From Gemmatales bacterium (GTDB lineage Bacteria > Planctomycetota > Planctomycetia > Gemmatales > HRBIN36): DNA of 58,928 nt. Position 1 is the first letter of the stretch, and each line of letters starts with the position of its first letter. Positions 3,519 through 25,810 of this stretch are shown here, in pieces. Position numbers and translations under genes: made by a program. Below the pieces are notes generated by a model that worked only from the letters and a program-made list of their open reading frames with translations, was not told the DNA's origin and made no database searches. Location of the stretch: contig JANWWR010000107.1 in assembly GCA_025055835.1 (NCBI GenBank), positions 1-58,928 on the forward strand, in the 5' to 3' direction.

Positions 3519-3539
3519 GATCTCACCTCTCGGCTGTTT

Positions 3540-5770: not shown

Positions 5771-5773
5771 GAT

Positions 5774-7557: not shown

Positions 7558-7776
7558 ATGCTCCCTGGGGACCGGCGGGAAAGGGCGAAATTGCTGGCCT
7601 ACGGGCAGATCGGTCTGGAGATGGCTGCACCGATCGGCCTCGGAGTCTTCCTGGATTTGCGCTGGGGAACGACGCCGTGGCTGACCGTGACCGGGGCCGT
7701 GGTCGGACTTGTGGGCGGACTGGCCCACCTGATCGCCATGCTGAATCGGGAGGAGCGGCAGACCCCGGGCCAATAG
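7558..7776 (+). CDS. AtpZ/AtpI-like small ATP synthase accessory protein
   Basis: G-GVFLDLRWGTTPWL---G-V-G motif with two TMs; first gene of the atp operon. Start chosen at ATG 7558. Confidence 0.75.
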   Translation: MLPGDRRERAKLLAYGQIGLEMAAPIGLGVFLDLRWGTTPWLTVTGAVVGLVGGLAHLIAMLNREERQTPGQ

Positions 7777-7798
7777 CGGGGCCGTTCCGAGGCAAACC

Positions 7799-8197
7799 AT
7801 GCGACAGCGGTTGGCAGGCTTGATCGTCGTGACTTTGCTGCTGTGGGCCGCGGCGGCCTGGATCGGCCAGCGCCTTTGGGGTGAATCCGCGGTGATCCAG
7901 AGTGCGGCCGCCATGTTGCTCTGTCTGGTTCCCGCCGTCGGAACAATGGCGTGGGCTTTGGCCGTGCGCTCACGCTCCAACGGCGAACAGATGCTGGCCA
8001 TGTTGGGCGGCGTCGGCCTCCGCATGTTCCTCGTGCTCGGGCTGGGACTGGCGGCTTATCATGCCGTCCCGCTTCTGCAATCCGAGGCGTTCTGGATCTG
8101 GTTGTTGGTTTTTTACCTGGTGACGCTCGGCCTGGAGATGATGATGGTCCTCCTGCCCGATGCGGCGACACCAGGCGCTGAGCGGATAACGACCTGA
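7799..8197 (+). CDS. atpI: ATP synthase protein I-like (4 TM)
   Basis: Four hydrophobic helices; position directly upstream of atpB. Confidence 0.6.
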   Translation: MRQRLAGLIVVTLLLWAAAAWIGQRLWGESAVIQSAAAMLLCLVPAVGTMAWALAVRSRSNGEQMLAMLGGVGLRMFLVLGLGLAAYHAVPLLQSEAFWIWLLVFYLVTLGLEMMMVLLPDAATPGAERITT

Positions 8198-8208
8198 CAG
8201 GTTCACCT

Positions 8209-9072
8209 ATGCACGATCCCTTCGATCACGTTCGCGATCACAGTGAATGGCACTTTCTCGCGAACGACCTGACCGGCGAATGGACGATTCAATTGCCGGT
8301 CCTTTTCGAGATCCCTGGTTTCAGCCTTTTCGGGTACGACTTCGGGCCGCACCGCTTCCAGCTGACCAAGTTCATGGTCTTGGAAGTGATCGCCGCCCTC
8401 GTCATCGCCGCCATTTACATTCCGTTGGCCCGCCGCGCCCGCACCGGCGAACCGCCGAAGGGCTACCTCTGGAACACGTTCGAGGCTGTCCTGACCTTCC
8501 TCCGCGACGAGGTCGCCAAGCCCAACATCGGCGAGGAAGAAGCCGATAAGTATGTGCCCTTCCTGTGGACCCTGTTCCTTTTTATCCTGGCCTGTAATCT
8601 CCTGGGTATGTTGCCGTTCCTCGGTTCGCCGACCCAGGACTTCAGCGTTACATTGACGCTGGCCTTCATCGCCTTCTGCGCCATCCACGGCTACGCCATC
8701 GCGGCCCACGGCTTAGGGCACTATCTGCAATCGTACATCCCCCACATCGACGTGCCTTGGATTCTGGCCATCTTTCTGATCCCGATGATCGTGGTGATCG
8801 AAGTCGCCGGCCACTTCATCAAAGCCTTCGTGCTGGCCGTTCGTCTTTTCGCCAATATGTTTGCCGGACATACGGTGCTGGCTTTCATTCTGTTCTTCAT
8901 CCTGATGGCTCGGCAGGCTTCCCCACTGCTGTTGGGAGCGATCACGTTGGGCAGCGTCCTGGGCGTGACAGCCTTGAGTCTTTTGGAACTGTTTGTGGCT
9001 TTCTTGCAAGCGTTCATCTTCACCTTCCTGACCTCGCTGTTCCTGGGTTCCACGCTCCATCCGGAGCACTGA
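8209..9072 (+). CDS. atpB: F0 subunit a
   Basis: LAVRLFANMFAGH (essential Arg), LELFVAFLQAFIF, NLLGMLP. Confidence 0.97.
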   Translation: MHDPFDHVRDHSEWHFLANDLTGEWTIQLPVLFEIPGFSLFGYDFGPHRFQLTKFMVLEVIAALVIAAIYIPLARRARTGEPPKGYLWNTFEAVLTFLRDEVAKPNIGEEEADKYVPFLWTLFLFILACNLLGMLPFLGSPTQDFSVTLTLAFIAFCAIHGYAIAAHGLGHYLQSYIPHIDVPWILAIFLIPMIVVIEVAGHFIKAFVLAVRLFANMFAGHTVLAFILFFILMARQASPLLLGAITLGSVLGVTALSLLELFVAFLQAFIFTFLTSLFLGSTLHPEH

Positions 9073-9152
9073 GAGCCGGGACAGGTCGAGTCGGAGGTGA
9101 GAGGGGAAATAACGTCAACCCAGAACCAGGTTTTACGGGAGTAATCCGACAC

Positions 9153-9470
9153 ATGAACACGCTCAAACTGCTGGCGATGGTGGTGGTCGTGGTGCTGGTC
9201 TGCGCCTTCCCGGCGTTCGCGGCTGACACAGCCGGGGCCAATTCGCCATTCTACGGCAACGCCATCGGGGCCGGGTTCGGGGCAGCCTTGACCACCATCG
9301 GAGCCGGTTTCGGCTTCGGACGGATCGGCAGCGCGGCCCTGGAAAGCATGGCTCGGCAACCGGAAGTGGCGGGACGGGTGCAGACGGGCATGCTGATCAT
9401 CGCGGCCCTGCTCGAAGGTGCGACCTTCTTCGCCCTCATCGTCTGCATCATCATGGCCACCAAGGCTTGA
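9153..9470 (+). CDS. atpE: F0 subunit c (H+-type) with an N-terminal signal-peptide-like extension
   Basis: GAGFGFG, ARQPE loop, carboxylate in LLEGA. True start is ATG 9153 within the longer track ORF 8757-9470. Confidence 0.95.
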   Translation: MNTLKLLAMVVVVVLVCAFPAFAADTAGANSPFYGNAIGAGFGAALTTIGAGFGFGRIGSAALESMARQPEVAGRVQTGMLIIAALLEGATFFALIVCIIMATKA

Positions 9471-10291: not shown

Positions 10292-10933
10292 ATGAGTTCG
10301 CAGCCTTCGACCAATCATCGGGCCGGTTTTCGTGACCTCATCACCGACGTGGGCGCACTCCGCGTCGCCAAGGTCTATGCCGAAGCGCTTCTCAATGCCG
10401 CCGAGAAACGCAATCAAGCCCAGGAAATCTGGGAAGAACTTGATTCCCTGGTCACCGATATCTTCGCTGCCAAGCCGGAACTGGAGGTATTCCTTTCGAG
10501 TGGGGCCATCGGCCGTAACGCCAAGGAAAACGTCCTCCGCAAGGTCTTTGAGGGTCGGGCCAGCGAACTGTTCCTGAACTTTCTGATGGTTCTCAATCGG
10601 CACGACCGTCTCAACCTGCTGCGGGCCGTGCGGCAAAGTTATCGAGACTTGATGAATGCCCGTGCCCGACGGATCGTGGTTCAGGTCCGCACTGCCGCTC
10701 CGATGGAAGAAGACCAGCGGCAGCGGTTGATCGACAACATCCGCGAGTCGCTGCACCTGGAGCCAGTCCTCGAAGAGCGGGTCGATCCCGATCTGCTCGG
10801 CGGGCTGGTCCTCCGCGTCGGCGATCAGATGTTCGATGGCTCGGTGCGGACCCGTCTGCTCAAACTTCGAGAGAAATTACGCGAGAGAAGCAGCCATGAG
10901 ATTCAAAGCCGACGAGATCGTTTCAGTGCTTGA
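10292..10933 (+). CDS. atpH: F1 subunit delta
   Basis: [39 protein letters not shown]. Confidence 0.95.
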
Positions 10934-12596
10934 GGCCGAGATTTCGCAGTTTCGGCCGCAATTGGAAGCACAAACCGTTGGCCGGGTCCTGGAGGTGGGC
11001 GACGGCATCGCCCGAATCTACGGGCTTGGCTCGGTGATGGCTGGCGAGATGGTCGAGTTCGTCCGCACCGGCGTCTTCGGTCTGGCCTTCAACCTTGAAG
11101 AAAACTCGGTCGGCGTCATCATCCTCGGCGACTATTTGCAGATCGAGGAAGGGGACGAAGTCCGCTGCACCGGACAGCTTTTGCAGGTGCCCGTCGGCGA
11201 TGCGCTGATCGGTCGGGTCGTTGATCCGCTGGGGAATCCCCTGGACGGCGGCGGTCCCATCGTCACCGACAAGCGCCGTCCCGTCGAATGGACCGCTCCC
11301 GGCGTCGCCGAGCGCCAGCCGGTCAACCAGCCGCTCCAGACCGGCATCAAGGCCATCGACTCGATGACTCCCATCGGTCGCGGCCAGCGGGAACTCATCA
11401 TCGGCGACCGCAAGACCGGCAAGACCGCGATCGCCGTGGACACCATCATCAACCAGAAGCACGAAAACGTCATCTGCGTCTACGTCGCCATCGGTCAGAA
11501 GGAATCGACGACGGCCCAGGTGGTTGAAAACCTTCGCAAGTACGGGGCGATGGACTACACGATCGTCGTGGTCGCTTCCGCCTCCGTGGCCGCTCCCCTG
11601 CAATACATCGCACCCTATGCCGGCTGTGCGATGGCCGAGTACTACATGTACGAGCAGGGGCGGGATACCCTCTGCGTCTACGACGACCTGACCAAGCAGG
11701 CGGCGGCGTATCGGCAGCTGTCGCTGCTTCTGCGTCGGCCTCCCGGACGGGAAGCCTATCCCGGCGACGTGTTCTACTGCCACTCGCGGCTCCTGGAGCG
11801 GTCGGCCAAGCTGGCGGAACGCTGGGTCATCGTGCCGAAAGACGCCGACGAGTCGAAGGTCACGGACAACTGGTCGGTCATCCGCAAGGAAAACGATCAG
11901 CCCGTCGTCTTCGTTGGCCCGCTGGAAAAGCACCACGCGGAAAAGGAGGTCCTGCCGAAGTACCCTGGTCACAAGCTGGCTAAGGTGGTCGGCTCCGGCG
12001 GATCGCTGACAGCCTTGCCGATCATCGAGACGTTGGAAGGCGAAGTGTCGGCGTATATCCCGACCAACGTGATTTCCATTACCGACGGACAGATTTACCT
12101 GCAACCGGACCTGTTCTTCGCCGGGGTGCGTCCGGCCATTGACGTCGGCATCAGCGTGTCCCGCGTCGGCGGCAAGGCCCAGACGCCGGCCATGAAGACC
12201 ATCGCCGGCAGCCTCCGCCTCGACCTCGCGGCGTTCCGCGCGTTGGAGGCATTCGCCCAGCTCGGCACGGAACTCGACAAGGCGACACAGGCCCAGCTCG
12301 ATCGCGGCTATCGCATGGTGGAAATCCTCAAGCAGCCGCAGTTCCGGCCGATGCACGTCATTGACCAGGTCATGATTATCTACGCCGGTACCCGAGGCTT
12401 CCTGGACAAGATTCCGCGCAACCAGGTGGCCGCCTGGGAGGAGCAGTTCCTCCAATTCATGCGGGAACAGAAGCCGGAAGTACGCGATCTGATCCTCAAG
12501 CCGGGGGCCTTCAAGAAGGATGCCGAAGGCAAGCCCTACATCCCGGAGCTGGATGCCGCCATCGAGTTCTTCCAGCCCCAGTTCAAGCCGGTGTAG
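10896..12596 (+). CDS. atpA: F1 subunit alpha with an internal insertion
   Basis: [48 protein letters not shown]. Start at ATG 10896 overlaps atpH by 38 nt. Confidence 0.98.
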
Positions 12597-12643
12597 CCGA
12601 CCGTGATTCGGGGGACATCAAGCAACGGCAAGGTTGACCGCAC

Positions 12644-13534
12644 ATGGCAAAGACTCGTGCCCTGCTGAAGCGCCGCAAGGCCATCCGCAACATCCACAAA
12701 ATTACCCGGACGATGGAACTGATCGCCACGTCCCGGTTCCAGCGGGCCATGGTCCGTGCCCAGCAGGCCGCCGCATTCACCCGCAAGATCACTGAACTGG
12801 CCGCCGACCTCAGCCTCTCAGCGGTCAACATCGATCATCCGTTGTTGAAAAAGCGAGAGCCGACCAAGCGGGCCGTGCTTCTGGTGATCTGTTCCAATCG
12901 CGGCCTGTGCGGCGGCTACAACGCAGCCATTCTGCGGCAGGCCACGCTCCGCTATCAGGAGCTTCGCCAGGCCGGGACGGAACTTGAACTGGACGTCTCC
13001 GGCAAGCGCGGCATCGCCTATTTCCGCTACCAGGGAATCACCCCGGCCCTGACATACACCCAGTTCGAGGACAAGCCGGCCTTCGAACAGGTGGAGCCAA
13101 TCGCCGACCGCCTCATCGAAGCCTACGTCCAGGAGAAGATCGACCGGGTGGACGTGGCCTACATGAAGTTCCTCAGCCCGGCAAGGCAGACGGCGGTGGC
13201 GGAGACGCTGCTGCCGCTGGCCTCGGAGGCCGCTTGGCCCACAGCTTCCGCGGCGAGTCCGAAGCGGGAAGCGAAAGTCGAGTACGAGTTTCTGCCCAGC
13301 GCTCGGGAAATCCTCGGCGAGATTCTGCCGTGGTCGTTCAAGGTTCGGCTGTTCAAATGCTTCCTCGATGCCGCTGTCAGTGAGCAGATCGCCCGGCGGG
13401 TGGCCATGAAGGCCGCCACGGAGAACGCGGCGGATATGATCAAAACGATCACGCGGCAATACAACCGAGCCCGGCAGGCGCAGATCACCAAGGAAATTGC
13501 TGAAGTCATCGGCGGCGCGGCGGCTTTGGAATGA
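12644..13534 (+). CDS. atpG: F1 subunit gamma
   Basis: KITRTMELIA, SNRGLCGGYN, SEQIARRVAMKAATENA, YNRARQAQITKEI-E. Confidence 0.97.
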   Translation: MAKTRALLKRRKAIRNIHKITRTMELIATSRFQRAMVRAQQAAAFTRKITELAADLSLSAVNIDHPLLKKREPTKRAVLLVICSNRGLCGGYNAAILRQATLRYQELRQAGTELELDVSGKRGIAYFRYQGITPALTYTQFEDKPAFEQVEPIADRLIEAYVQEKIDRVDVAYMKFLSPARQTAVAETLLPLASEAAWPTASAASPKREAKVEYEFLPSAREILGEILPWSFKVRLFKCFLDAAVSEQIARRVAMKAATENAADMIKTITRQYNRARQAQITKEIAEVIGGAAALE

Positions 13535-13538
13535 TTCA

Positions 13539-15117
<1,579 letters not shown>

Positions 15118-15167
15118 CAACACCGCGCGGCTTGACGGAGAGGGTATTTCGGAGAGCGACGCAAATC

Positions 15168-16082
15168 ATGCCCTGGCTCGGCGCGCATCTGTCGGTCGCC
15201 GGCGGCTTCTACAAGGCGGTTCACACGGCCGATGCGCTGGGCATGGAAGCCGTGCAGATTTTCACCCACAGTCCGACACAGTGGGTCGTCACCGCCGAAG
15301 CCTCCCGGGGCAGATCGCCACGGTCGGGAAAAGCGTCGAAGTGGCGGAGCAAACCCCTCGATCCCCAGGCCGTTGCCGCCTTTCACGAAGCCCGCAAGCA
15401 TTCGAAGGTCCGCTGCTTTCTGGCCCACGACAGCTACCTCATCAACGTCGCCTCCGCCGATCCGCATCTGCGGCGCAGGTCCATCGAAGCGTTGATCGTC
15501 GAGATGGAGCGGGCCGAAGCGCTGGGGCTATTCGCCCTGGTCATGCATCCGGGGGCGGGACAAAGCGACGAGGATCGGGACGCCATCCTCCGCATCGCGG
15601 AGGCCTTGGATGAGGTCCATCAGCGTTGCCCGAAAAACCCGGTGCGTATCCTGTTGGAAACGACGGCGGGGCAAGGCTCAACGCTCGGCCACCGCTTCGA
15701 GCACCTGGCGGAGATTCTCTCCCGCGTCCGCCAGCCGGAACGGCTTGGCGTCTGCTTCGACACCTGCCACGTCTTCGCCGCGGGCTATCCGCTGGCCCCG
15801 GAGAAGGCATATCGGGAAACGCTGCGGCAGTTCGACGCCATCGTCGGAGTGAAACGCATCGCCGCTTTTCATCTCAACGACAGCGCGAAACCCCTCGGCA
15901 GCCGCGTGGACCGCCACGCCCACATCGGCCGGGGATGCCTGGGACTGGAACCGTTCCGTCTGCTGCTCAATGACCCGCGTTTCCGCAAACATCCGATGCT
16001 GATGGAAACGCCTAAGGGCACGGAGAACGGCGTGGACCTCGACGAAATCAACCTCCACACGCTCCGCACCCTACTCGCATAA
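15168..16082 (+). CDS. nfo: Endonuclease IV (deoxyribonuclease IV)
   Basis: GAHLS-AGG, HDSYLIN, HPG, LLETTAGQG, CFDTCHVFAAGY, HLNDS, DRH-HIG, ETP. Start at ATG 15168. Confidence 0.95.
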   Translation: MPWLGAHLSVAGGFYKAVHTADALGMEAVQIFTHSPTQWVVTAEASRGRSPRSGKASKWRSKPLDPQAVAAFHEARKHSKVRCFLAHDSYLINVASADPHLRRRSIEALIVEMERAEALGLFALVMHPGAGQSDEDRDAILRIAEALDEVHQRCPKNPVRILLETTAGQGSTLGHRFEHLAEILSRVRQPERLGVCFDTCHVFAAGYPLAPEKAYRETLRQFDAIVGVKRIAAFHLNDSAKPLGSRVDRHAHIGRGCLGLEPFRLLLNDPRFRKHPMLMETPKGTENGVDLDEINLHTLRTLLA

Positions 16083-16154: not shown

Positions 16155-19100
16155 TCACCGCACCTCCATCAGCAGCGACCGACTCCGCCCCTGCCGATCC
16201 GCGTTGTAATACTCATACACCCGCGCTCCCGGCACCGTGACCTTGACGGGCATCGTCGCCTGCAATTGATACCGCAGGGTCAATTCGCGCCCCGGAGGCA
16301 GGCTCCGCAGATAGACCACGACGCTTCTCGGATTGGCCTGATACTTCTCGATCCGACGGTCACGCACCATCCCTTCCCACTCTTCGGAGAGGATGCCGAA
16401 GCCGGCGGGGATTGGCAGATCGAGAATGACCATCGGAGCTTCCACTTCCATGTTGTTCCGAATCCGAGCCGTGACTTCCACCGTATCGCCGACCGCCAGG
16501 TTGGTCTTGTCGTAATCCAGCGTGATCGTCAGCGGTTCCTGGGGCGGCGGCTGATCGGAATCGGGAACGTGATGTCGGAAGAGGATCTGGAAGCTGGAAG
16601 CGGAGGCAGAAGTTTCCCCGATCCGCAGCGAATTGCGACCCGCTGCCAGCCGGTCGGACAGGTCGATCACCTTCATGACGTCATCTTGGTCGGCCGGAAT
16701 GACCAGTTCCTGCCGGTGGTCGCCGAGGACGATCTCGATGCGCCGCTCCTGACCACCGCCGAGCGGCTTGCCAGTCCCGGCCAGCAGGGCCTTGAGGGCC
16801 AGCACCGTGCCCTGCGTGGTGCCGAAGGTGCCGTTCTGACTCCGCTGCCGCGTCAACCATGCCAGTCCAGCCCGGATGTCAGCCGGATAGCGATTTTTCT
16901 CGAGAAGTGCGAGCAGGGCAAGGGCCGTCGCCTCCACCGAAGCACCCTCGCCGTAGGCATAAAACAACGTGCCTTGGCCCGCGTCGAGCGTCCACCAGAC
17001 GGTCTTGTTCTCCGCGTCGGTTTTCTTCAAAGCTTGCAGGCGTTCGAGGTACGGAACCAATTCTGCGTCCGGGGTCTGGCAGGCGATCAAGGCGTTGCAG
17101 GTAAGGGCCAGCACATAGGCGTTGTCAAACTCCCTCGGCGGACGGGCCAGCAGGTAGCGGCGTGTCGAGGCTGTCTCGGCCGAGTCGTCACGGTTGCCGG
17201 AACCGAAAACGGCCCAGGCGACGTAAGCCGTGGTCAGGTAGGTTTCCCAACCGACATCGCGTCCGCCGCCTAAGTCTCCGGCGGCCAATCTGCGGCCCTC
17301 CGAGGACCAGGAGCCGTCGGGATCCCGCTTACGGAGCAGCCAGGCCCGGGTGCGGGTGATCAGCCTCGGGTCCACGTCATGGACCAAAGCCATGTCCTGA
17401 AACTCCATCAGCCCATAGGCGGTGAGGAGCACGTTGGCCGGTGGACGGCCGAACCAGTCGAAGCCGCCGCCCGGAACCTCGAAGCCGAGCAGCCGCTGAT
17501 AGCCGAGGTGGATGTATTGGCGGGCCTTGGCCTCAACCTCCGGTGCCGCCTGGTTGGACTTCCGCAGATAACTCAACGCCAGCACGTTCGGATAGGTGGT
17601 GGACGAGGTCTGCTCGAAACAACCGTAGGGCTGGCGGAAAATGCCTTCCAAGCCCTCAATCAACTGGCTGAACGCCGACGGGTAGATTTTGACCAGCAGT
17701 TTGCCGCTGCCTTCGATGGCCTGCTGCGGCAGCTCGAAATCGGCGGACACAGGCTGCTGCAAATCGCCGTTGACGACCTGCTCGACGGGCACGCCGTCCG
17801 GCACGACTTCGATGCCGCGTTTGACGGCGTCGGCGACGAAGCGGCTCTTGGCCGTGACCTGGAGCGTGTGCTTGCCGACCTGCTTCACCTTGATGCGGTA
17901 CGAGCGGGACAGCACCTGATTCGCTTCCAGGCGCAAACTTTGTTCGGCTTCGCCTTCGACCAGCTCGAACCACGGCTGAACTTCCAGGCGGATTTCGACC
18001 TGCTGTTCCTGATTGAGGTAGTTGCTGACAACGACCGGAATGCTGACCTCATCGCCCCGGGTTAGCGTCACGGGCAAATTGAGGTCCACGAAGAAGGGCT
18101 GGAACACCCGCACGCCGCTCTGCAAGCCCCCCAGCCGACCGTCGCCTGAAACCGCTCCCGCCGTTAATCGCCAAGTGGTGATCGAGTCCGCCAAGTCCAC
18201 TTCGATCTGAGCGAAGCCGTTGTCATCCGTGATGATCTCCGGCCGCCACAGCAGCGTTTCCGGGAAATACTCCCGCACCCGGACGGATTCCGTGGACCCT
18301 GCCTCACCCGGCTGGTTGGCCTGCCCTTCCTGGCCCACTTGGGGAGGAAGCATGGCTTCAACCTTGACATTGCCAGCCTCCGATCTTGACACCGGCAGCG
18401 CACTTTTGTCGGCTCCAAACAATCCCAGGGTCGCTACTAGCAGAAACACTCCGCCGCACCCGGCGACCCCTAAGAGGACTGCGTTGATCGCCACGACGAT
18501 CCACATTGGCCGGACGAACAGCCACAAGGCCAGGTAAAGAATCAGGCCCAGCATCACGTAGTACGCCGCCCAGAGCCGTAGCAACGTGTCCTCACTGCGT
18601 CTCCGCTCTTCGTCGACTTGCTCCTGCTTGCTTGGAAACGTGGTCAAGCGCAGCGAATACACGGAATTGAAATCCGGACTGGCAAAAGGACGTGCGGCCC
18701 GATCGGTTCCTGTCTGTGCCATCGAAGCGCGAGCATTGTCCGTCTGGGCGAGTTGAGAGAACAAGGCAAGCTCGAAGTCGTCCCAATCCCTTCCACGGCG
18801 GCGGCCGGGATGATCGGGATACCAATCGTAAATGGCGTAGATGGGCTTGAGCCGTTCCTGCTCCAGCGTGAAAAAGGTCTTTTCCATGCCGGGAGCCTGG
18901 CTCATCACGCTGAAGACGGCTTCGTCCACGATGGCGAGGCTGATCGCTCCCGGAGTCGGTTTGCCCTCCCCGTCAGTGATCTCGAAGCCGATCGTGGCCC
19001 GCTGGCCAGGGCGGAACTCCTCCTGGTTCATGATCGTGGTGATCTTCAGTTCTTGAGCCTGCTTGACGAAGATGGACCGGCTCTTGCGGACGGCCAGACC

Positions 19101-20912
19101 GGCGGTGCCGAAGCGATAGGCCACGATTTCCACGTTGCCGAACAGATCGGCGGGCAGATCCACTTCCAATTCGCCCTTGCCGTCCCGCACCTCGACGGTG
19201 GTCGTCAGCACGGTCTGGCCGTCGCGGATCAGGTCCACGAACACGGGTTCGACCCCGGCTCCCAGGGCGGTCAGACGCAGCGTCTCGCCGCCGGTGTACA
19301 CCGCTTTGTCAGTGCGAAGCACGAAATCGCGGTCGGGAACTTGCCCGCACATCAAGACCTGAGTACGGCTCGCAGTGAGGCCGTTGCGGTCCACGGCGGT
19401 GACGGTCAAAGACACGCTCTCGCCTTGCGGAGTGACCTCGAAGACGGCCATGCCTAGCTCGTTGGTCACAAGCTCGTTGGGCTGATCGCTGATCTTGAGC
19501 CGGGTGCCTGCCGCTGGTCGGCCCTGAACGTAGGTGGCATAGACGTAGATGCGGTTCGGCACGCCATGCACCAGCACACCGTTTTCGGGCAACAACATCA
19601 GCCGCAGAGGACGGGCGGTGACGATCCGCGTGATTCGCCGTTCCTGGGACTGCCCCGCGGTATCGGTGACTCGGGCAAGGATTTCAATCCGGGCATCGCC
19701 GGACTCGGTTTCCGTGCCGATGAGCTGGTTCGGCAAGGTAAACTCAAAGGCCGCCTCGCCCTGGCGATTCATCCGCACGTCGAACTTCCTGAGCGTCGTC
19801 GGCCGGATTTCCTGGGTCACGACCTCGATTTCGGCCGAGCCGCTGACCGGCTTCCCGAAGAAGTAGTTGGCGAAGACCGTGCCGCGCACCTTCGCCCCGG
19901 GCTGGTAGTACGGCTCATCGACGTCGATCTCGACCTTGAACTTGGGAAGCACATAACGGGCCACCTCGACGGTCGCCTCGCTGACCGTGTCGCCGACTTC
20001 GCAAGTGATTCGATAGTTGCCCAGGAGGATTTCGTTGGCCAGTTCGCAGTCGGCGGAGACGATGCCGAAACGGCTGGTGACGTCGCTGCGTTTGAAGATG
20101 ATGTTGCCCTTGGGGTCGGTGACGCGGAAGACGGCTTGCCGACCGGCCTCCGGTCGCAGATCGGGCCGACGCAGGGCCAAGGCCCGCAGGTGGATCGTCT
20201 GGCCCGGCTGATACACCGGCTTGTCGGTGCTGAGCATCAGCTTCCACTGACGCCGCAGCACAACCGGCTCGGCCAGTTGCTCGGGCTGGCTCGGCGTCTG
20301 AGCGACGATCTGAAGTTGGTATTCGCCGTCGTTCCAGTCCGGCCAACGGAACCGAGGTCGGCCGGTGCCGTTCTCGTCGGTGACGAACTCCGCCAGTTTC
20401 ACCGCATCGGATCGGCCCTGCCCGTCGGCCAGGTAAAGCACCACGGGAACGCCGCTGACAGCCGCCCCGTTGGAACGGTTCACCAGCCGCACCCGCAATG
20501 ACGCTTCCGAGCCGGGAACCGCCTGCCGTTGACCGAAAACTTGCAGGTCCCAGGGCGTCGGCGTGAGATTGGCGTAGTACAAGCCCAGAATCATGAGCAC
20601 AATGGCAGCGGCTGCCGCCACCCCGCCGGAACCGAAGGCGTAATAAACGAACCAGCGCAGGCGGGTGGTGCGTCGGCGTTCCACCTTGGCCAACGTCCTT
20701 CGCACCAGACCCTCGGATGCCTCCAGGCCCGGCAGCCGTTGCAGGGCTTCGAGCCGCTGGGCTGCCCGACCCAGGGCCGCTTTCAATTCCGGGCGTGCCT
20801 CGCAGTCCCGCTCAAACTGCTCCGCCTCCGTCGGCGACATCAGGTCGTGCAGGTAGGCGTCGATGCGTTCGTGATCGGCGTCGGTCAAGCTGGCAGGAGG
20901 CTGTTCTGACAT
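16155..20912 (-). CDS. Membrane-anchored alpha-2-macroglobulin (thioester protein) with an N-terminal anti-sigma-like domain and an internal TM hairpin
   Basis: STDKPVYQPGQ (MG2), YVLPKFKV, VDEAV, REYFPETLLW, DSITTW, FQPFFV-L-LP, thioester PYGCFEQ (nt about 17610-17630), GYQRLL, TTQGTVLALKAL, VYEYY. aa 1-85 anti-sigma-like, TM about 87-113, two further hydrophobic helices about 777-833. Confidence 0.9.
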   Translation of the reverse strand: MSEQPPASLTDADHERIDAYLHDLMSPTEAEQFERDCEARPELKAALGRAAQRLEALQRLPGLEASEGLVRRTLAKVERRRTTRLRWFVYYAFGSGGVAAAAAIVLMILGLYYANLTPTPWDLQVFGQRQAVPGSEASLRVRLVNRSNGAAVSGVPVVLYLADGQGRSDAVKLAEFVTDENGTGRPRFRWPDWNDGEYQLQIVAQTPSQPEQLAEPVVLRRQWKLMLSTDKPVYQPGQTIHLRALALRRPDLRPEAGRQAVFRVTDPKGNIIFKRSDVTSRFGIVSADCELANEILLGNYRITCEVGDTVSEATVEVARYVLPKFKVEIDVDEPYYQPGAKVRGTVFANYFFGKPVSGSAEIEVVTQEIRPTTLRKFDVRMNRQGEAAFEFTLPNQLIGTETESGDARIEILARVTDTAGQSQERRITRIVTARPLRLMLLPENGVLVHGVPNRIYVYATYVQGRPAAGTRLKISDQPNELVTNELGMAVFEVTPQGESVSLTVTAVDRNGLTASRTQVLMCGQVPDRDFVLRTDKAVYTGGETLRLTALGAGVEPVFVDLIRDGQTVLTTTVEVRDGKGELEVDLPADLFGNVEIVAYRFGTAGLAVRKSRSIFVKQAQELKITTIMNQEEFRPGQRATIGFEITDGEGKPTPGAISLAIVDEAVFSVMSQAPGMEKTFFTLEQERLKPIYAIYDWYPDHPGRRRGRDWDDFELALFSQLAQTDNARASMAQTGTDRAARPFASPDFNSVYSLRLTTFPSKQEQVDEERRRSEDTLLRLWAAYYVMLGLILYLALWLFVRPMWIVVAINAVLLGVAGCGGVFLLVATLGLFGADKSALPVSRSEAGNVKVEAMLPPQVGQEGQANQPGEAGSTESVRVREYFPETLLWRPEIITDDNGFAQIEVDLADSITTWRLTAGAVSGDGRLGGLQSGVRVFQPFFVDLNLPVTLTRGDEVSIPVVVSNYLNQEQQVEIRLEVQPWFELVEGEAEQSLRLEANQVLSRSYRIKVKQVGKHTLQVTAKSRFVADAVKRGIEVVPDGVPVEQVVNGDLQQPVSADFELPQQAIEGSGKLLVKIYPSAFSQLIEGLEGIFRQPYGCFEQTSSTTYPNVLALSYLRKSNQAAPEVEAKARQYIHLGYQRLLGFEVPGGGFDWFGRPPANVLLTAYGLMEFQDMALVHDVDPRLITRTRAWLLRKRDPDGSWSSEGRRLAAGDLGGGRDVGWETYLTTAYVAWAVFGSGNRDDSAETASTRRYLLARPPREFDNAYVLALTCNALIACQTPDAELVPYLERLQALKKTDAENKTVWWTLDAGQGTLFYAYGEGASVEATALALLALLEKNRYPADIRAGLAWLTRQRSQNGTFGTTQGTVLALKALLAGTGKPLGGGQERRIEIVLGDHRQELVIPADQDDVMKVIDLSDRLAAGRNSLRIGETSASASSFQILFRHHVPDSDQPPPQEPLTITLDYDKTNLAVGDTVEVTARIRNNMEVEAPMVILDLPIPAGFGILSEEWEGMVRDRRIEKYQANPRSVVVYLRSLPPGRELTLRYQLQATMPVKVTVPGARVYEYYNADRQGRSRSLLMEVR

Positions 20913-20991: not shown

Positions 20992-21555
20992 TCAGGTCGC
21001 CATTCGCGGAGCAAGAATGCGACGGATCGCCGCCAGGCCGTGGTGCATGGTGGATCGAACGGTTGCTTCTTCCTTCCCCAGCACCTCGGCGATTTCGCCG
21101 TACGACAGGCCGTCCCAGATGCGAAGGACCAGCACAGTCCGCTGCTGGAGCGGCAACCGCGCGACGGCTTGAGCGATGATCTGGGCATCTTCCGCGTCCA
21201 TCGCCGCGTGGTCCGGTTCCTTGACGGCGTGTTCGCCCAGGTGTTCGGCCTGTTCCTCGCTGAGGGAAATCGTGTCCAGGCGGTGGCGGCGGAAGTACTC
21301 CCGGACCTTGTTCAGTGCGATGGCGTACAGCCACGGCTTGAACGGCTTGGGATACCGATAGGTGGACCGCTTGGCCCACACAGCCAGGAAGGCTTCCTGG
21401 AACAGTTCCTCGGCCAAGGCACGATTGCCGACCAGGCGGTAAAGAAAGGTCAGCAACGGCGTGGCGTGGCGACGCAGCAGCGCTTCCATGCTTTCGTGAT
21501 TCCCCTGGGCCGTCCGCATCATCAGCTTCTCGTCCGGGTCATCGGGTGCGGTCAT
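20992..21555 (-). CDS. ECF (sigma70 group 4) RNA polymerase sigma factor
   Basis: Sigma2 (AEELFQEAFLAVW, FKPWLYAIALN) and sigma4 (LPLQQRTVLVLRIWDGLSYGEIAEVLG----TVRS). No C-terminal extension; start at ATG 21555. Confidence 0.93.
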   Translation of the reverse strand: MTAPDDPDEKLMMRTAQGNHESMEALLRRHATPLLTFLYRLVGNRALAEELFQEAFLAVWAKRSTYRYPKPFKPWLYAIALNKVREYFRRHRLDTISLSEEQAEHLGEHAVKEPDHAAMDAEDAQIIAQAVARLPLQQRTVLVLRIWDGLSYGEIAEVLGKEEATVRSTMHHGLAAIRRILAPRMAT

Positions 21556-21665
21556 GGCGAAGACCTGACTTCGGCCTCTGAGGACTGCTATGCGCCGCGG
21601 GGCCAATCCGTTGAACGGAATGTTAAAAATCTGGGAAACGGTAGTCAGGACGCTGGTCGCCCAAA

Positions 21666-23240
21666 CTACCCGCTTGTCGCCAGGATAACGAACAGCATCA
21701 GCGCGCCGTTATTGACGGCGTGAGCAACGATACCCGGGACGACGGTTTCTCGCCATTCCCGAGCGATGGTGAAGGCGAAGGCCAAGGCCATCAGCGCCGG
21801 GACGGCTACCCACCCTTGCGGATGGATGACGGCGAAGATGAAACTGACGATGAAAGCGCTGGCCAGGAACCCGAAGACCCGTCCGAGCTTCCGAGTCGCC
21901 TCCCGAACGTGCCGGTAGAAGACGCCGCGGAACATGATCTCTTCGACGATCGGAGCGCACACGGCGGCCACGAACAGCACCTGGAATCGTGCCCACCAGC
22001 TGCCAGTCCCGAGGTACTCCAGGATGGGATGCGTCGGGGAGTTGAGCGTCGGATCGAAGGGATTCGTCTGCTGCGGACCAAACAGCAGGGTGTGAATCAT
22101 CTCCCGGAACAGGATCAGCATGAAGGTCATGAGGATGCCGACCACGAGCATCGGCAGCCCCATGACATAGCAACCGATGCCGACAAACGGCTCCGCCCAC
22201 GGCCGTCGTCCCCAGGTCAGGCCGATGTCTTTGCGGACCACGCTCCAGGGCACGCCGCGGATCACCGGCCAAGCCAGGGCGACCAGACTTGCCAACACCG
22301 ACAGTCCCAGGACGAACAGTTCCGACTCGGGGGGAATGGGCAGGAACGAGACGCCCAGCTGGAGGCCGACGAACAACACCATGTAGAGGGCGAAGGTTTC
22401 CGCATACACGCCGTGATGTAACGAGCCGGTCCGCAGGCCGCCTCGGACCCAGCCCATGAGAGCAAGGATGAGGAATATGAACAACCCAATCGCCCCGGCC
22501 AGGATCAGAACACCGCCGCCAAGCACCCCGACGATGGCGGTCACGAAGGTTCGTTGTGCTCCAGCCAGCAGTTGCTTGCGGACCTCGGGCGTCGGGCCGC
22601 CCTCCGGATTCAAGGCCAACTCCGCGAACCAGCCCAAGGCCTGGCGGAGTTCGTCCCGTTGCTCCTGAGATACCTCCGGAGCCTTCCATTGACCGGCCTC
22701 GTATTGCCGGTACAGGGTTCGCAGAATGCTGAGCAGTCGCGATTCCTGGGGGGTGAATTGATAACCATGTTCGGCGGCTTCGGCTTCCAGATGCTCGAGT
22801 TGATCCAAGGCGGCAGCCGGACCCTGCATCTCTCCGGCAAAGATCGCCAGACGCAGCCGCTGGATCACCGAGCCTCGGCCGATCTCCTCAAGCTGCTTGT
22901 ACAGGGAGTCCTTCATTTCCTTGGACTTGAAGAACTGGCCGGCTCCCAGGGCGTAGCGGACCTGGAATTGCATGAGGACGCCGCTGATGCGGTCGATCTG
23001 CTCATCGTCTCCGGTCTCGCGTTTCAGGAGCAGAGGAGCGACGACCATCAGCGCCGTGACGGCGAGGATGATCGGCCAGGCCAGCCAAGCCATGCCCCGG
23101 CGAACCGGTTCGAGCGTCGGAATCGGCGGCGGAGCGACGACGGCGTCGATTATCGGCGGTGGCTCGCTGGGAAGAGGTGGTTGTGGTTCTTCGGGTGGCA
23201 GGGGAATAGCTTCCCAGGTGTCAGTCATAAGGTGTCCCAT
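21666..23240 (-). CDS. CPBP (Abi/CAAX type II) intramembrane glutamic protease with a large N-terminal soluble domain
   Basis: EEIMFRG, FAVIH and HAVNN motifs intact; multiple TMs; Pro-rich N-terminus; about 150 aa helical loop after TM1. Confidence 0.88.
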   Translation of the reverse strand: MGHLMTDTWEAIPLPPEEPQPPLPSEPPPIIDAVVAPPPIPTLEPVRRGMAWLAWPIILAVTALMVVAPLLLKRETGDDEQIDRISGVLMQFQVRYALGAGQFFKSKEMKDSLYKQLEEIGRGSVIQRLRLAIFAGEMQGPAAALDQLEHLEAEAAEHGYQFTPQESRLLSILRTLYRQYEAGQWKAPEVSQEQRDELRQALGWFAELALNPEGGPTPEVRKQLLAGAQRTFVTAIVGVLGGGVLILAGAIGLFIFLILALMGWVRGGLRTGSLHHGVYAETFALYMVLFVGLQLGVSFLPIPPESELFVLGLSVLASLVALAWPVIRGVPWSVVRKDIGLTWGRRPWAEPFVGIGCYVMGLPMLVVGILMTFMLILFREMIHTLLFGPQQTNPFDPTLNSPTHPILEYLGTGSWWARFQVLFVAAVCAPIVEEIMFRGVFYRHVREATRKLGRVFGFLASAFIVSFIFAVIHPQGWVAVPALMALAFAFTIAREWRETVVPGIVAHAVNNGALMLFVILATSG

Positions 23241-23329
23241 CCACGGCGACGGTGCTTGCAGACATTCTTGACATCAGATTCTTCGTCGTCCATTGCCTGG
23301 CCTTTTGCGGCAGCAGCACCATCGGACCG

Positions 23330-25693
23330 TCAGTTGAAATCCACGCGGGCTGTGTAGAGGTTTCTGCGGTCCCCGCGGAGGTAGAAATCCTCGAGCAGGA
23401 TGCGGGGATCGGGGGCGAGCTTGCCGCGGAAGACTTTGCCGCTCGGTGAGCCGGGATTGACCCGCACCTGCACCGGCTGTTCGAAGTCCACCATCGCGGT
23501 GTTGAGCCACACGCTCAGTTGCCGAAAACCGGTGTGATGGACCAGCACGCCGTTCTCCGCTGGCACGAGCCGAGCCGAGATTGTCGCCGGGGGCCGATTG
23601 TCGCCAACGGCCAGATCCCGGCTGCTTACCCAGTAAAAACGGTTGTGGTACGGTCGGATGGTGCAGAAGCGTCTGCCCAGCGTACCGCTCTGTTCATCCG
23701 GTCCGCCCAGTTCGGGCAGACCCGAGGCCCGCCGCTTGCGGTTGAACCAGTCGAAGATCAGCGGCACCTCGCCGGGGTAAAACTCCAGGCCTCGGCCGCT
23801 GTACTCGACGTAAAGACTTGGAAAACCGCGGTTGACCCAGAACTCAAACAGGTCCCGATTCTCGCCGGTGTTGTTGGGACTTTTTTCCCCTTCGACGACA
23901 TAGAACGGCAAGTACTGAGCGTTGCCGCGATAGGTCCGTCCCAGTTTACCGGGCGAGGCGCAGAACACGGCCACGCCGGCGAAGCGATCCGGATGGGACA
24001 AGGCGACGTCGTAGGCCAACGTGCCGGACTGGTCGAAGCCAACCATGTAAATGCGGTCGGAATCCACCTGGAATCGCCGCCGCAGGTCGGCCAGCACTTC
24101 GATGACCCGTTGCTGTTCCTCGTCCTGACCGTGATAGCGTTCCTGAAGCGGATCGGTCCAATGCGGCGCAGCCAGGAGGTAGCCATGAATCGCCGCCTGC
24201 TCCCGCCAACGCGACAACGCCTCTTCCGGCTGCTCGCGGACGTTTGGCAATACCAGCAGCAGAGGATACGGCCGATGCGGATGGTATTCCGGCGGCAAAA
24301 GCAAGGTGTACGAAACCCGCCTCGGGCCGGCGGTGGTCAGCACGGCCAAGTCCGTGGGAAGCGTGTCGGGCTGCTGCGGCGGGCGTAGCAACTGAATCAA
24401 CTGCGTCAGGATGTCGGTGGCAATTTTCTCCTCGCGGAGGTATTGGTCCAGGAACCGGGAACGCGCCTTCTCGTCCTCGGTGCGGAGGTAGTCCAGGAGG
24501 AAGGCACGGATTTTCCACAGGTGCCGAACCGACTCGACATTTCGCTCCGCCCCGGCGTCGCCGACGGCCCAGCCGGACACCGCCAAGGCCAGCAATTCCT
24601 CGGGCGGATGACGCCGGGGCTGCCCCGCCGACTCCCGGCGTTCCTCTTGCGAAGCCAGGGTCAAAAACGCCTCGAGACGCGCCACCGTGTCCTGGTTCAG
24701 ACCCGCCCGGATTTCGGCTAGGGCATCATGCCAGTCCTTCAAAAGGGCCTCGTCCTTGACGAGAGCGACCACGGCTTCGAGGTGCTTCCGGCAGGCCTCC
24801 ACCCTGGTCTTCAGATCCTGGACGCGATTCCGCAGGGCGGTGGCGCGATTGACGTCGTTCTTGTCGGCAAAGTCCAGGGGCAGTTCGGCGAGCAGGCGCT
24901 CCGCGCGCTGATACTGCCCCGCGCTCGCCGCCTTCTCGACGGCTTCGATCATTTCCTGTGCCTTCTGTCGCCGCAGCGACTCGGTCAGCGGAGCCAGTGC
25001 CGATTCTTCCTCGGGAAATTCCTTGAACAGTTGCTTCAGCGTCGCCTCGGCCTCGGCCAGCCGACCCGCCTGCCGCAAGAAGCGATGGAGCGTCAGCAGT
25101 TCGTCTCGCTTGCCGGGAGGCTGCGACTGACGACCGAGAGCGTGCCGAACCATCTGCTTCAGCGTCGGCGTGTCGAATTCGCTGGTCAGGTAAGAAGCGT
25201 CCCAGCGGACCCGGCGGGCGCTGACCCGCAGAAACTGCGGATTGAGATGAACGACACACTGCTCGAAGGTCCGCGTGCCGCCGCTGGGCAAGTCGTTGAC
25301 CAGCGTGATCTTGCGGATCGCTTCGGGGGACCATTCCTCGGCCTGCTCCACCTTGACCATTCGCAGGGCGGGGCTGAACTCGGTGCGGAACAGGGGGGGT
25401 TTCAAGGCAAAGGCTTCCAAAGGCTCGCGCTGGGGTGGATCGGGCTGGGCTTCGGCCACCTGACGGGTACTGAAGACGATGCGGCGTGCCCCGTCGTCCA
25501 CCATGTAGAAACCGCCCAGCTTCTTGATCCAGAACTCCCGCCCTCCCGGATCGCGAAGGATTTGCCCCTCGATCAACAGATTCCCGCGAAGGATGAATCC
25601 ATCCCGGAGAATGATGACCTCTGCCCCGGCCCAGGTCGGCCCGAGGATCAGTCCGATGACCATGACCCAAATCCAGCGTCGGCCCGTGTCCAT
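23330..25693 (-). CDS. Secreted protein with a C-terminal alpha/beta-hydrolase (esterase/peptidase-like) domain
   Basis: Signal peptide (WIWVMVIGLILGPTWAGA-E); YTLLLPPEYHPHRPYPLLLVL; DSDRIYMVGFDQSG---YDVALSHPDRFAGV. Start at ATG 25693. Confidence 0.78.
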   Translation of the reverse strand: MDTGRRWIWVMVIGLILGPTWAGAEVIILRDGFILRGNLLIEGQILRDPGGREFWIKKLGGFYMVDDGARRIVFSTRQVAEAQPDPPQREPLEAFALKPPLFRTEFSPALRMVKVEQAEEWSPEAIRKITLVNDLPSGGTRTFEQCVVHLNPQFLRVSARRVRWDASYLTSEFDTPTLKQMVRHALGRQSQPPGKRDELLTLHRFLRQAGRLAEAEATLKQLFKEFPEEESALAPLTESLRRQKAQEMIEAVEKAASAGQYQRAERLLAELPLDFADKNDVNRATALRNRVQDLKTRVEACRKHLEAVVALVKDEALLKDWHDALAEIRAGLNQDTVARLEAFLTLASQEERRESAGQPRRHPPEELLALAVSGWAVGDAGAERNVESVRHLWKIRAFLLDYLRTEDEKARSRFLDQYLREEKIATDILTQLIQLLRPPQQPDTLPTDLAVLTTAGPRRVSYTLLLPPEYHPHRPYPLLLVLPNVREQPEEALSRWREQAAIHGYLLAAPHWTDPLQERYHGQDEEQQRVIEVLADLRRRFQVDSDRIYMVGFDQSGTLAYDVALSHPDRFAGVAVFCASPGKLGRTYRGNAQYLPFYVVEGEKSPNNTGENRDLFEFWVNRGFPSLYVEYSGRGLEFYPGEVPLIFDWFNRKRRASGLPELGGPDEQSGTLGRRFCTIRPYHNRFYWVSSRDLAVGDNRPPATISARLVPAENGVLVHHTGFRQLSVWLNTAMVDFEQPVQVRVNPGSPSGKVFRGKLAPDPRILLEDFYLRGDRRNLYTARVDFN

Positions 25694-25810
25694 CGTTGCC
25701 TTGCCCTTGGCCGCTTGTCCCGCCTTGCTGCATTTTGACCGGCCCAGACACTTGCAATCAAGGAAACTCTTGCCGCGCGGCGCGATTCGGCAAACTTTTC
25801 GCAATTTTTC

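Follow-up and report, generated by a model that had tools for sequence, protein, structure and literature searches.

The window, by which we mean the whole 58,928-nucleotide stretch of planctomycete DNA that was analysed, carries at positions 16155–20912 a gene whose translation gives a protein of 1585 aa. This gene and all features described below lie on the minus strand. From its N-terminus, the protein consists of an anti-sigma-like domain, a transmembrane segment (TM1), domains MG1 to MG6a, two hydrophobic helices, MG6b, MG7, a TED with the sequence GCFEQ, and MG8. A gene for an ECF sigma factor (20992–21555; Pfam Sigma70_r2 and r4_2) lies 79 nt upstream of it; translation probably starts at an ATG at 21555, and the ORF lister begins this gene at a TTG at 21606. 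A gene for a CPBP (Rce1-like) membrane protease, recognized by Pfam, follows 110 nt further upstream on the same strand (21666–23240), and the gap between the CPBP and sigma genes holds a putative ECF-type autoregulatory promoter, TTCAACGgattggccccgcgGCGCATA (21589–21615), which ends some 34 nt ahead of the ATG of the sigma gene.

We found that MG2, MG3, MG4, A2M_BRD and A2M all score above their Pfam cut-offs, and AlphaFold2, whose prediction covered aa 60–1259, shows a series of beta-sandwich domains. The predicted periplasmic part MG1–MG6a (aa 117–668; 18909–20564) contains the first four of these matches, with A2M_BRD at aa 532–668. The part from MG6b onwards (aa 876–1585; 16158–18287) contains MG7 (Pfam A2M, aa 886–976), the CUB/TED (TED_complement, E = 4.6e-44) and the MG8/receptor-binding domain (A2M_recep, aa 1492–1575, E = 2e-10). 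The thioester motif GCFEQ (aa 1097–1101; 17610–17624) is found in 120 of 120 homologues and falls in invariant alignment columns. An MG series with a bait domain inserted in MG6, a TED with CxEQ and an MG8/receptor-binding domain place the protein in the A2M/TEP superfamily. It is not a bacterial type I A2M, which would have a lipoprotein signal and the bMG set: its N-terminus is an 87-aa cytoplasmic domain followed by a TM segment, with no lipobox, and bMG10 is the sole bMG model over its cut-off (27.8 bits vs 26.2), with bMG5 below its own and the eukaryote-type models scoring strongly.

Between VDEAV (aa 662) and REYFPETLLW (aa 880), and so between Pfam's A2M_BRD and A2M, the earlier note had described two hydrophobic segments followed by a low-complexity linker, and the translation and the Pfam borders bear this out. 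The segments are LLRLWAAYYVMLGLILYLALWLFV (TM2, aa 777–800; 18513–18584) and MWIVVAINAVLLGVAGCGGVFLLVATLGLFG (TM3, aa 803–833; 18414–18506), joined by R801–P802 (18507–18512), which translation and alignment give as a two-residue turn, cytoplasmic in the predicted topology; the pair occupies window positions 18584–18414. On the N-terminal side, a conserved part of the bait region (PGMEKTFFTLEQERLKPIYAIYDW ... DWDDFELALFSQLA, aa 669–722; 18747–18908), with a mean identity of 51% (n = 108) and AlphaFold2 helices, is followed by Linker 1 (aa 723–752; 18657–18746) and by a charged amphipathic pre-TM2 helix (aa 753–776; 18585–18656), which is seen in the alignment and in the AlphaFold2 model and carries the semi-conserved pattern HSL..SFP.K...R. 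On the C-terminal side, the hairpin is followed by the low-complexity linker GQEGQANQPGEAGSTES (Linker 2, aa 834–875; 18288–18413), which adjoins the alpha'NT-equivalent segment. The bait thus has two hypervariable, predicted disordered linkers, interrupted by two predicted TM helices.

In the whole protein, Kyte-Doolittle means over 19 residues exceed the threshold of 1.6 only at TM1 (88–118) and in the block 776–835. When the Hessa scale was applied as a simple sum, windows below 1 kcal/mol occurred among the 1585 aa only at TM1 (best 0.46), TM2 (–1.53) and TM3 (–0.63). Because their best sums are lower, TM2 and TM3 are each more hydrophobic than TM1, a segment that must span the membrane in an anti-sigma factor. 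AlphaFold2 predicts a helix at 759–799 (pLDDT 72–87), which runs unbroken from the pre-TM2 helix into TM2, and a helix at 803–830, for which the confidence is modest (pLDDT 51–66); pLDDT falls below 50 at aa 727–749 in Linker 1 and at aa 827–875 in Linker 2. TM1 itself (aa 88–116; 20565–20651) is marked by hydropathy, by an AlphaFold2 helix at 67–114 and by a positive-inside bias, with 4.7 K+R on the cytoplasmic side vs 1.0 on the periplasmic side. The turn between TM2 and TM3 averages about 1.2 K+R across the family. The 15 aa ahead of TM2 are rich in K+R, with a mean of 3.9, which does not fit the simple positive-inside rule for a periplasmic flank and counts against the topology proposed here.

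We then compared the best 120 of more than 3288 family matches, which are 45–78% identical. All 120 have a hydrophobic block in the same place together with GCFEQ; in 119 of them at least 38 hydrophobic-window residues lie at the hairpin site (median 56), and in the remaining one the two segments are visible by eye. Since 119 of 120 homologues share the block at an equal position, the hairpin is not a product of chance, and the alignment proposed in the earlier note as a check on whether homologues keep the hairpin comes out in its favour. Across 108 homologues, Linker 1 has 9.4% identity and a length of 2–61 aa, and Linker 2 has 9.9% identity and a length of 33–78 aa; the adjacent MG6b is 75% identical across the family. 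The two linkers look like the real protease-accessible bait and are our candidates for it. Identity is also low in the TM segments (24% in TM2, 14% in TM3): their sequence drifts, and what the family keeps is hydrophobicity (mean Kyte-Doolittle 1.86 for TM2 and 2.13 for TM3) and length (about 24 + 24 aa). In TM2 the alignment shows a near-invariant W781 and an LW..R turn motif. Among 84 matches to the bait module, no stand-alone family was seen outside macroglobulins; full-length matches (about 1500–1700 aa) carry the module at approximately aa 660–880, and the shorter proteins are probably fragments. These data suggest that the hydrophobic pair is a genuine, inherited helical hairpin that is predicted to insert in vivo, and the family-wide conservation supports the earlier proposal of a three-TM architecture with a membrane-tethered bait region as a predicted topology.

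The full protein has a strong homologue (E <= 1e-100) in 42 of 401 sampled Planctomycetota genomes; the bait segment alone, too insensitive as a query, found 2 of the 401. In relatives from other phyla, the bait has approximately six TM helices or none. The bait TM number is even in the relatives counted by eye, with two in the hairpin forms and six in L046 and L062, and an even number means that both halves of MG6 can stay periplasmic. In a tree built on the C-terminal 700 aa, one clade (SH-aLRT 93) contains 45 of the 47 two-TM rows, and 4 changes suffice to explain the TM state, as compared to a mean of 29.6 when the states are shuffled. The earlier note set out from the statement that baits are normally soluble, and this is true of the solved relatives and of the clade whose baits have no TM helices. 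We rooted the tree with the genome's separate A2M paralogue (2078 aa, GCTEQ), which sits on an outgroup branch of 4.69 and places the root in a polytomy; the root position favours neither a TM-bearing nor a soluble bait as ancestral.

The cytoplasmic anti-sigma-like domain (aa 1–87; 20652–20912) is indicated here by weak NCBIfam matches to anti-sigma models (E = 0.001–0.003, far below the cut-offs) and by PF13490 zf-HC2 in homologues. The HxxxCxxC zinc motif is degenerate in this protein (ERDCEARPEL) and intact in 96 of 109 full-length homologues. With its gene directly downstream of the sigma gene and a single TM after the domain, it has the layout of a class I ECF anti-sigma gene. In 24 of 26 hairpin loci the next gene upstream is a homologous sigma gene, and all-against-all clustering of the flanking ORFs in these 26 loci gave the sigma gene as the sole conserved neighbour. 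Ahead of the sigma gene we found the promoter-like motif TTCAACG-N13-GCGCATA. We counted the dyad TTCAAC/CGCA in 12 of the 26 sigma-upstream regions, as compared to a maximum of 5 after shuffling; aligned instances in the window and approximately 15 loci lie 50–70 nt before the start, and the motif also occurs in L091 and L092. A strict search of the genome, which is 95% complete, gave this site as the only perfect copy. An exact-pattern search gave one further match, inside the coding region of prephenate dehydrogenase and on the opposite strand; this match, in which one base is unlike the GCGCA(T/A)A consensus, is probably due to chance and was rejected as a regulon site. The other one-mismatch sites lie amid shadow ORFs in high-GC DNA.

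By sequence and fold search, the best solved relatives are CD109, A2M, A2ML1, TEP1 and C3, with CD109 the top match (sequence E = 1e-63; Foldseek E = 2e-56, TM-score about 0.52). They share the domain order MG1-6, a bait inserted in MG6, MG7, CUB/TED with CxEQ and MG8, and differ in having no TM helices in the bait, no cytoplasmic domain and no sigma link. CD109 is likewise a membrane-tethered, protease-triggered trap; however, its anchor is a C-terminal GPI anchor and its bait is soluble. In C3, C4 and C5, the same MG6 insertion site carries the ANA domain and the processing site. The bacterial type I A2Ms (E. coli ECAM/YfhM and Salmonella SaA2M) are also periplasmic thioester protease traps tethered to the inner membrane, but they have an N-terminal lipid anchor, a soluble bait and no anti-sigma domain, and ECAM is distant, at rank 47 in the fold search and missing from the sequence matches. 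The class I single-pass ECF anti-sigma factors, which regulated proteolysis releases (RseA/sigma-E, RsiW/sigma-W and RsiV/sigma-V), resemble this system in the N-terminal cytoplasmic anti-sigma domain, the one TM and the gene position after an autoregulated ECF sigma gene; in contrast, a full thioester macroglobulin forms the sensor here, and its chain is predicted to re-enter the membrane twice. The site-1 event would also be unlike theirs, as it would be cleavage of the bait by the sensed protease itself.

Our proposal, drawn from sequence and structure prediction and given about an even chance, is that the protein combines a thioester macroglobulin with an ECF anti-sigma factor and that the hairpin, midway along its bait, is inserted in the inner membrane. 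The protein would be a sigma-coupled thioester trap with a membrane-tethered, split bait, and its signalling is predicted. The proposal builds on what the analysis shows: hydrophobic segments that are conserved and even in number, linkers that vary, a linked sigma gene and its promoter motif. From these we infer membrane insertion in vivo, the cleavage sites and the coupling to sigma release. The anti-sigma domain would be cytoplasmic and TM1 would run in to out; MG1–MG6a and Linker 1 would be periplasmic, TM2 would run out to in to the cytoplasmic Arg-Pro turn, and TM3 would run in to out, leaving Linker 2, MG6b through MG8 and the thioester in the periplasm. In this layout, a membrane peg would divide the bait into two periplasmic linkers, both hypervariable and disordered. 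A periplasmic or foreign protease would cut one linker; a cut in Linker 2 would free the segment equivalent to alpha'NT of C3 (the C-terminal bait-side segment of A2M), and the trap would fire. The hairpin would hold the cut ends and any thioester-captured protease at the membrane beside TM1. As the trap is consumed, anti-sigma function would be lost, probably by further trimming and the action of a site-2 protease, and this loss would carry the signal across the membrane; the genome does contain genes for M50 site-2 proteases. The freed sigma factor would re-express its own operon from TTCAACG-N13-GCGCATA and re-supply the trap. Against this mechanism, the TM1 fragment left after a single bait cut would keep a periplasmic domain of approximately 650 aa and is not a classical site-2 protease substrate.

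Another account, doubtful in our estimate but one to be taken seriously, is that the hairpin serves only as a second anchor or a biogenesis device with no role in sensing or sigma signalling. It would either keep the MG ring lying flat against the inner membrane or let a periplasmic chain of 1470 aa be translocated as two units. E. coli-type A2Ms and CD109 are tethered to membranes and have no known signalling role, and the identity of the TM segments is weak next to that of the domains. L047, L062, L072 and L077 have TM-bearing baits with neither an anti-sigma domain nor a sigma neighbour, so the hairpin's primary role may be the trap's own and not signalling. However, TM1 is already an anchor, and the hairpin lies precisely within the bait, between hypervariable linkers and not at a terminus; W781 and LW..R suggest more than bulk hydrophobicity, and linkage to a sigma gene is near-universal in the two-TM clade. 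The least probable reading, to which we give hardly any weight, keeps the mature helices out of the cell's own membrane, buried in the MG ring or reserved for insertion into a target membrane after activation. The modest AlphaFold2 confidence for TM3 and the positive flank before TM2 would suit it, and nothing direct speaks for it. The Sec translocon would be expected to insert segments of this hydrophobicity into the membrane when they follow a translocated domain, and the six consecutive TM helices of some relatives cannot be buried in a beta-sandwich ring.

Two further alternatives bring in a dedicated protease. The earlier note had raised the neighbouring CPBP protease as one for which the hairpin could be a substrate, and a membrane-embedded bait for CPBP as a dedicated site-1 protease would fit a gene so close to the sigma gene, the more so since the adjacency is kept in relatives with 78% and 56% identical A2M. 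But these close relatives are syntenic throughout, including the nfo and ATP synthase genes, so the adjacency is uninformative. No CPBP homologue (by blastp) or CPBP motif set was found in 80 related loci, which include 26 hairpin loci, and the conserved promoter motif separates CPBP from the sigma gene, leaving CPBP outside the promoter. We therefore rejected CPBP as a family-level partner, and the substrate proposal is very improbable. A little less improbable, and still very unlikely, is that TM3 is of prepilin type, with a prepilin peptidase cutting the TM2–TM3 turn from the cytoplasm to give a two-chain macroglobulin, much as furin makes two-chain forms of C3 and CD109, or with a type II secretion or type IV pilus-like machine acting on the C-terminal half. 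In 26 of the 120 homologues, TM3 and the next approximately 40 aa carry the motif LLP[AS][LV]..ARE, 10 of these 26 with a Glu at the position like pilin +5. Their pilin-like segments match the GspG N-terminus (E = 4e-10 to 4e-7) and, above cut-off, positions 1–47 of PF07596; the relatives P0065, P0080 and P0085 have a pilin-type segment. The last bait TM of the six-TM forms is pilin-like as well, so that in these and the 26 members the last bait TM and the following helix resemble a type IV pilin, GspG or DUF1559 N-terminus placed N-in and C-out, and at least 25 DUF1559 pilin-like genes were counted in the genome. Unlike a pilin N-terminus, the bait element is internal, and Gly at –1 is unconserved even among the pilin-like members. 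In contrast to theirs, the window's TM3 (RPMWIVVAINAV...) is not a type IV prepilin-like (class III signal) segment: it lacks both the Gly at –1 and the Glu at +5, and it gave no match to a pilin family at E up to 1. Returning to the integrated, sigma-coupled hairpin, a bolder version, speculative and in our judgment unlikely, makes the membrane-embedded bait the transducer of a self-reporting, single-use trap. A cut in either linker would free the hairpin from the macroglobulin body and unmask TM1 and the anti-sigma domain for intramembrane proteolysis, so that a replacement is transcribed; the hairpin would derive from a prepilin-type helix, and the bait of the pilin-like relatives would be cut cytoplasmically by prepilin peptidase in a furin-like manner.

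We found no published account of a macroglobulin combined with an anti-sigma factor, nor of a bait that spans the membrane; a membrane hairpin in the bait region of a macroglobulin would be a new layout and suggests that the trigger is tied to the membrane. Homologous genes are at present labelled 'hypothetical', 'YfaS', 'RsiW' or 'PulG', and the finding has consequences for their annotation. CD109, A2M and C3 are nearer to this protein than E. coli ECAM is, and the protein therefore bears on how the MG6 insertion site has been used in TEP evolution: for a bait, for an ANA domain, for a Hint domain and now, by prediction, for TM bundles. Bait regions have been treated as soluble, exposed loops; here the bait of one clade is predicted to dip through the membrane. 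The system lets the coupling of a protease-trap switch to the bilayer and to transcription be tested, in what we propose to be one protein that is sensor, effector and anti-sigma factor.

We found that the minus-strand ORF at 16155-20912 translates to a 1585-aa protein, an alpha-2-macroglobulin (A2M)-type protease trap fused to an anti-sigma-like domain. The first 116 aa, which close with a transmembrane span (TM1, aa 88-116), weakly resemble an anti-sigma factor (NCBIfam E 0.001, far below cut-off). Pfam places the macroglobulin (MG) domains MG2 at aa 225-317, MG3 at aa 319-392 and MG4 at aa 449-507, A2M_BRD at aa 532-668, A2M (MG7) at aa 886-976, TED_complement at aa 1079-1376 (E 4.6e-44) and A2M_recep at aa 1492-1575, and GCFEQ, the thioester motif, occupies aa 1097-1101. 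Among 109 full-length homologues, the N-terminal TM is present in 106 and the HxxxCxxC zinc anti-sigma motif is kept in 96; this motif is lost in the window protein (ERDCEARPEL, aa ~28-45, window 20780-20830, minus strand).

The earlier note had claimed two hydrophobic segments in the bait region, and we found them exactly where it placed them: TM2 (LLRLWAAYYVMLGLILYLALWLFV, aa 777-800) and TM3 (MWIVVAINAVLLGVAGCGGVFLLVATLGLFG, aa 803-833) are joined by Arg-Pro and lie between the two MG6 halves (window 18584-18414, minus strand). Kyte-Doolittle (KD) 19-residue windows exceed 1.6 only at TM1 and in the block at aa 776-835, and a Hessa-scale score, calculated as a simple sum of the scale values, is below 1 kcal/mol only for TM1 (0.46), TM2 (-1.53) and TM3 (-0.63). 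Because the sums are lower for TM2 and TM3, the hairpin is more hydrophobic than TM1, the TM that an anti-sigma factor necessarily has. AlphaFold2, given aa 60-1259 and 47 homologues (mean pLDDT 78.5), produced an unbroken helix at aa 759-799 (pLDDT 72-87), a three-residue break and then a helix at aa 803-830 (pLDDT 51-66); pLDDT is below 50 at aa 673-704, 727-749 and 827-875. By all three measures, aa 777-833 are predicted to form a membrane hairpin. MG6 strands are present on both sides of the insertion and therefore both flanks must share a compartment, which in turn requires an even number of spans; counted by eye, there are two bait spans in the window protein and six in the related loci L046 and L062. 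This argument from MG6 continuity and span parity is indirect. The positive-inside bias of TM1 is clear (K+R 4.7 vs 1.0) and Arg or Lys is nearly always found in the TM2-TM3 turn; a caveat to the topology is the unexpectedly basic flank that precedes TM2 (3.9 K+R).

A homologue search with aa 520-1120 matched more than 3288 relatives, the best 120 of which are 45-78% identical, mostly ~1600 aa long and, where named, assigned to Gemmataceae, Planctomycetaceae or Phycisphaerae. When the hairpin was checked against these homologues, as had been proposed, all 120 had GCFEQ and retained a hydrophobic block ~260-320 aa ahead of it; 119 reach the threshold of at least 38 hydrophobic residues (median 56) and the remaining one has two segments by eye. 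Across 108 aligned sequences, mean identity is 51% in a conserved helical part (aa 669-722), 9.4% in linker 1 (aa 723-752; length 2-61 aa), 26% in a charged pre-TM helix (aa 753-776), 24% in TM2 (mean KD 1.86), 14% in TM3 (mean KD 2.13), 9.9% in linker 2 (aa 834-875; length 33-78 aa) and 75% in MG6b (aa 876-915). W781 in TM2 is near-invariant, and within the window's subclade the turn motif LW...R(P)xW is recurrent. The hypervariable, predicted-disordered linkers 1 and 2 have the properties expected for bait sequence, and the hairpin lies between them.

To place the hairpin in the wider family, we scanned species-representative genomes and retained the best 80 of 586 related stretches. Among these, Planctomycetota loci carry the 2-TM hairpin (Gemmataceae, Pirellulaceae, Planctomycetaceae, Isosphaeraceae, Phycisphaerae and Tepidisphaeraceae), a smaller set has about six bait TMs (L046, L047, L048, L062, L063, L072 and L077), the bait of L060 contains about nine or ten, and bait TMs are absent from relatives in Armatimonadota, WOR-3, Hydrogenedentota, Acidobacteriota and others. 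Labels on the many-TM forms include Verrucomicrobiota, Sedimentisphaerales and Chloroflexi, and most of these sister macroglobulins lack the anti-sigma domain. In a maximum-likelihood tree built from the C-terminal 700 aa, which has no resolved root, 45 of 47 two-TM rows group together in a single clade (SH-aLRT 93), and the TM state requires 4 changes, whereas shuffling gives a mean of 29.6. Of 401 sampled Planctomycetota genomes, 42 (35 of 288 genera) contain a match at E <= 1e-100. Our search for a stand-alone bait module family outside macroglobulins found none. A single in-frame TGA is present in many of the planctomycete relatives; in L087 (G125:C7), L088 (G197:C39) and the hairpin-bearing L089 (G362:C61) it takes the very position of the thioester cysteine (GUFEQTSS / GUFEQTT), which suggests, from sequence, that selenocysteine replaces that cysteine in these three relatives. 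The window gene has TGC (Cys) at this position.

Sequence and fold comparisons with solved structures both put human CD109, A2M, A2ML1, mosquito TEP1 and C3/C4 closest, and E. coli ECAM ranks 47 by fold; the window protein belongs with the eukaryote-type TEPs and not with the YfhM-type bacterial A2Ms. As another membrane-tethered trap, CD109 offers a useful comparison, although its tether, unlike that of the window protein, is a C-terminal GPI anchor. The same genome encodes a second, distantly related macroglobulin (2078 aa, GCTEQ, G000:C60 ~3000-9300, minus strand) with 24-29% identity over aligned parts.

An ECF sigma factor gene (20992-21555, minus strand) lies 79 nt upstream of the A2M gene. 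In 24 of 26 hairpin loci a homologous sigma gene directly precedes the A2M gene, and no other neighbour is conserved across these loci. An ECF-type promoter-like dyad, TTCAACG-N13-GCGCATA (21589-21615, minus strand), sits ~34 nt before the sigma ATG, between the sigma gene and a gene for an Rce1-like CPBP membrane protease. The dyad is found at the corresponding place in about 15 other loci, is shared with about 17 related loci in all and occurs in 12 of 26 upstream regions (shuffled maximum 5), and the window copy is the only perfect one within the 3.86-Mb genome. These data fit an autoregulated unit of two genes, with the sigma factor and the trap itself as its chief products.

The earlier note had also proposed that the hairpin is a substrate of the CPBP protease, whose gene (21666-23240, minus strand) lies upstream of the dyad and whose product has an additional soluble helical domain of ~150 aa after its first TM. 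The CPBP gene adjoins in relatives with A2M proteins 78% and 56% identical; however, the whole neighbourhood is syntenic there, including nfo and ATP synthase genes, and neither a CPBP homologue nor the CPBP set of motifs occurs in any of the 80 wider loci. For these reasons we rejected CPBP as a family-level partner; the earlier interpretation thus has partial support, in that the membrane-tethered bait stands but the hairpin is improbable as a CPBP substrate. The syntenic block (TPR-like gene, CPBP, sigma, A2M, nfo, ATP synthase alpha, gamma, beta) covers window 21666-25804 (minus strand) and 10836-16082, and its TPR-like protein is 824 aa in the window and 785 aa in relatives.

TM3 could instead be a prepilin-type segment, since in 26 of 120 hairpin proteins (including P0065, P0080, P0085, P0120 and L090) TM3 and the next ~40 residues resemble a type IV pilin or pseudopilin N-terminus. 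These segments match the GspG N-terminus (E 4e-10 to 4e-7) and positions 1-47 of PF07596/DUF1559 above cut-off, and 10 of the 26 have Glu at the pilin +5-like position. The last TM of 6-TM forms is also pilin-like (L046, L047 and L072), as is TM3 of the G190 homologue; besides the window's genome, G190 is the only one sampled from this class that gave a strong match. Pilin helices are oriented N-in and C-out, and the predicted orientation of TM3 agrees with this. However, we found no pilin-like features in the window's own TM3, and because Gly at -1 is unconserved even among pilin-like members, prepilin peptidase may at most process some of the relatives; we give a prepilin-type TM3 little credence. 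It is similarly doubtful that the helices lie, non-inserted, outside the cell's own membrane. The genome has at least 25 DUF1559 (PF07596) pilin-like genes as compared to none in 14 control genomes, a contrast in favour of the window being planctomycete DNA.

Taken together, these proteins have a conserved 3-TM layout in which two linkers, variable and predicted to be disordered, flank a putative membrane peg; the thioester motif is intact, and an ECF sigma factor and an autoregulatory-type promoter are coupled to the gene. We propose a membrane-tethered split bait in a sigma-coupled thioester trap that signals, a compound reading that we consider evenly poised. Proteases reaching the periplasm would cut a linker, and a cut in linker 2 would free the alpha'NT-equivalent or C-terminal bait-side segment so that the trap fires. 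Held by the hairpin, the cut ends and the thioester half, together with any protease captured, would stay next to TM1 at the inner membrane. With the intact ectodomain lost, anti-sigma function would be lost, probably via trimming and an M50 site-2 protease (the genome encodes more than one), and the freed sigma factor would re-express the operon. A weak point of this mechanism is that a single linker cut would still leave a 650-aa ectodomain on TM1, and a weak point of the signalling is that TM-bearing baits also occur without anti-sigma domains. That the hairpin is purely an anchor or biogenesis device is rather unlikely; because of these two weak points, however, its first role may be to anchor and orient the trap, with signalling secondary. 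Our literature search found no macroglobulin joined to an anti-sigma factor and no transmembrane bait. The layout, undescribed in the literature searched, is a novel variation on TEP/A2M plus ECF anti-sigma factor that is widespread in Planctomycetota.
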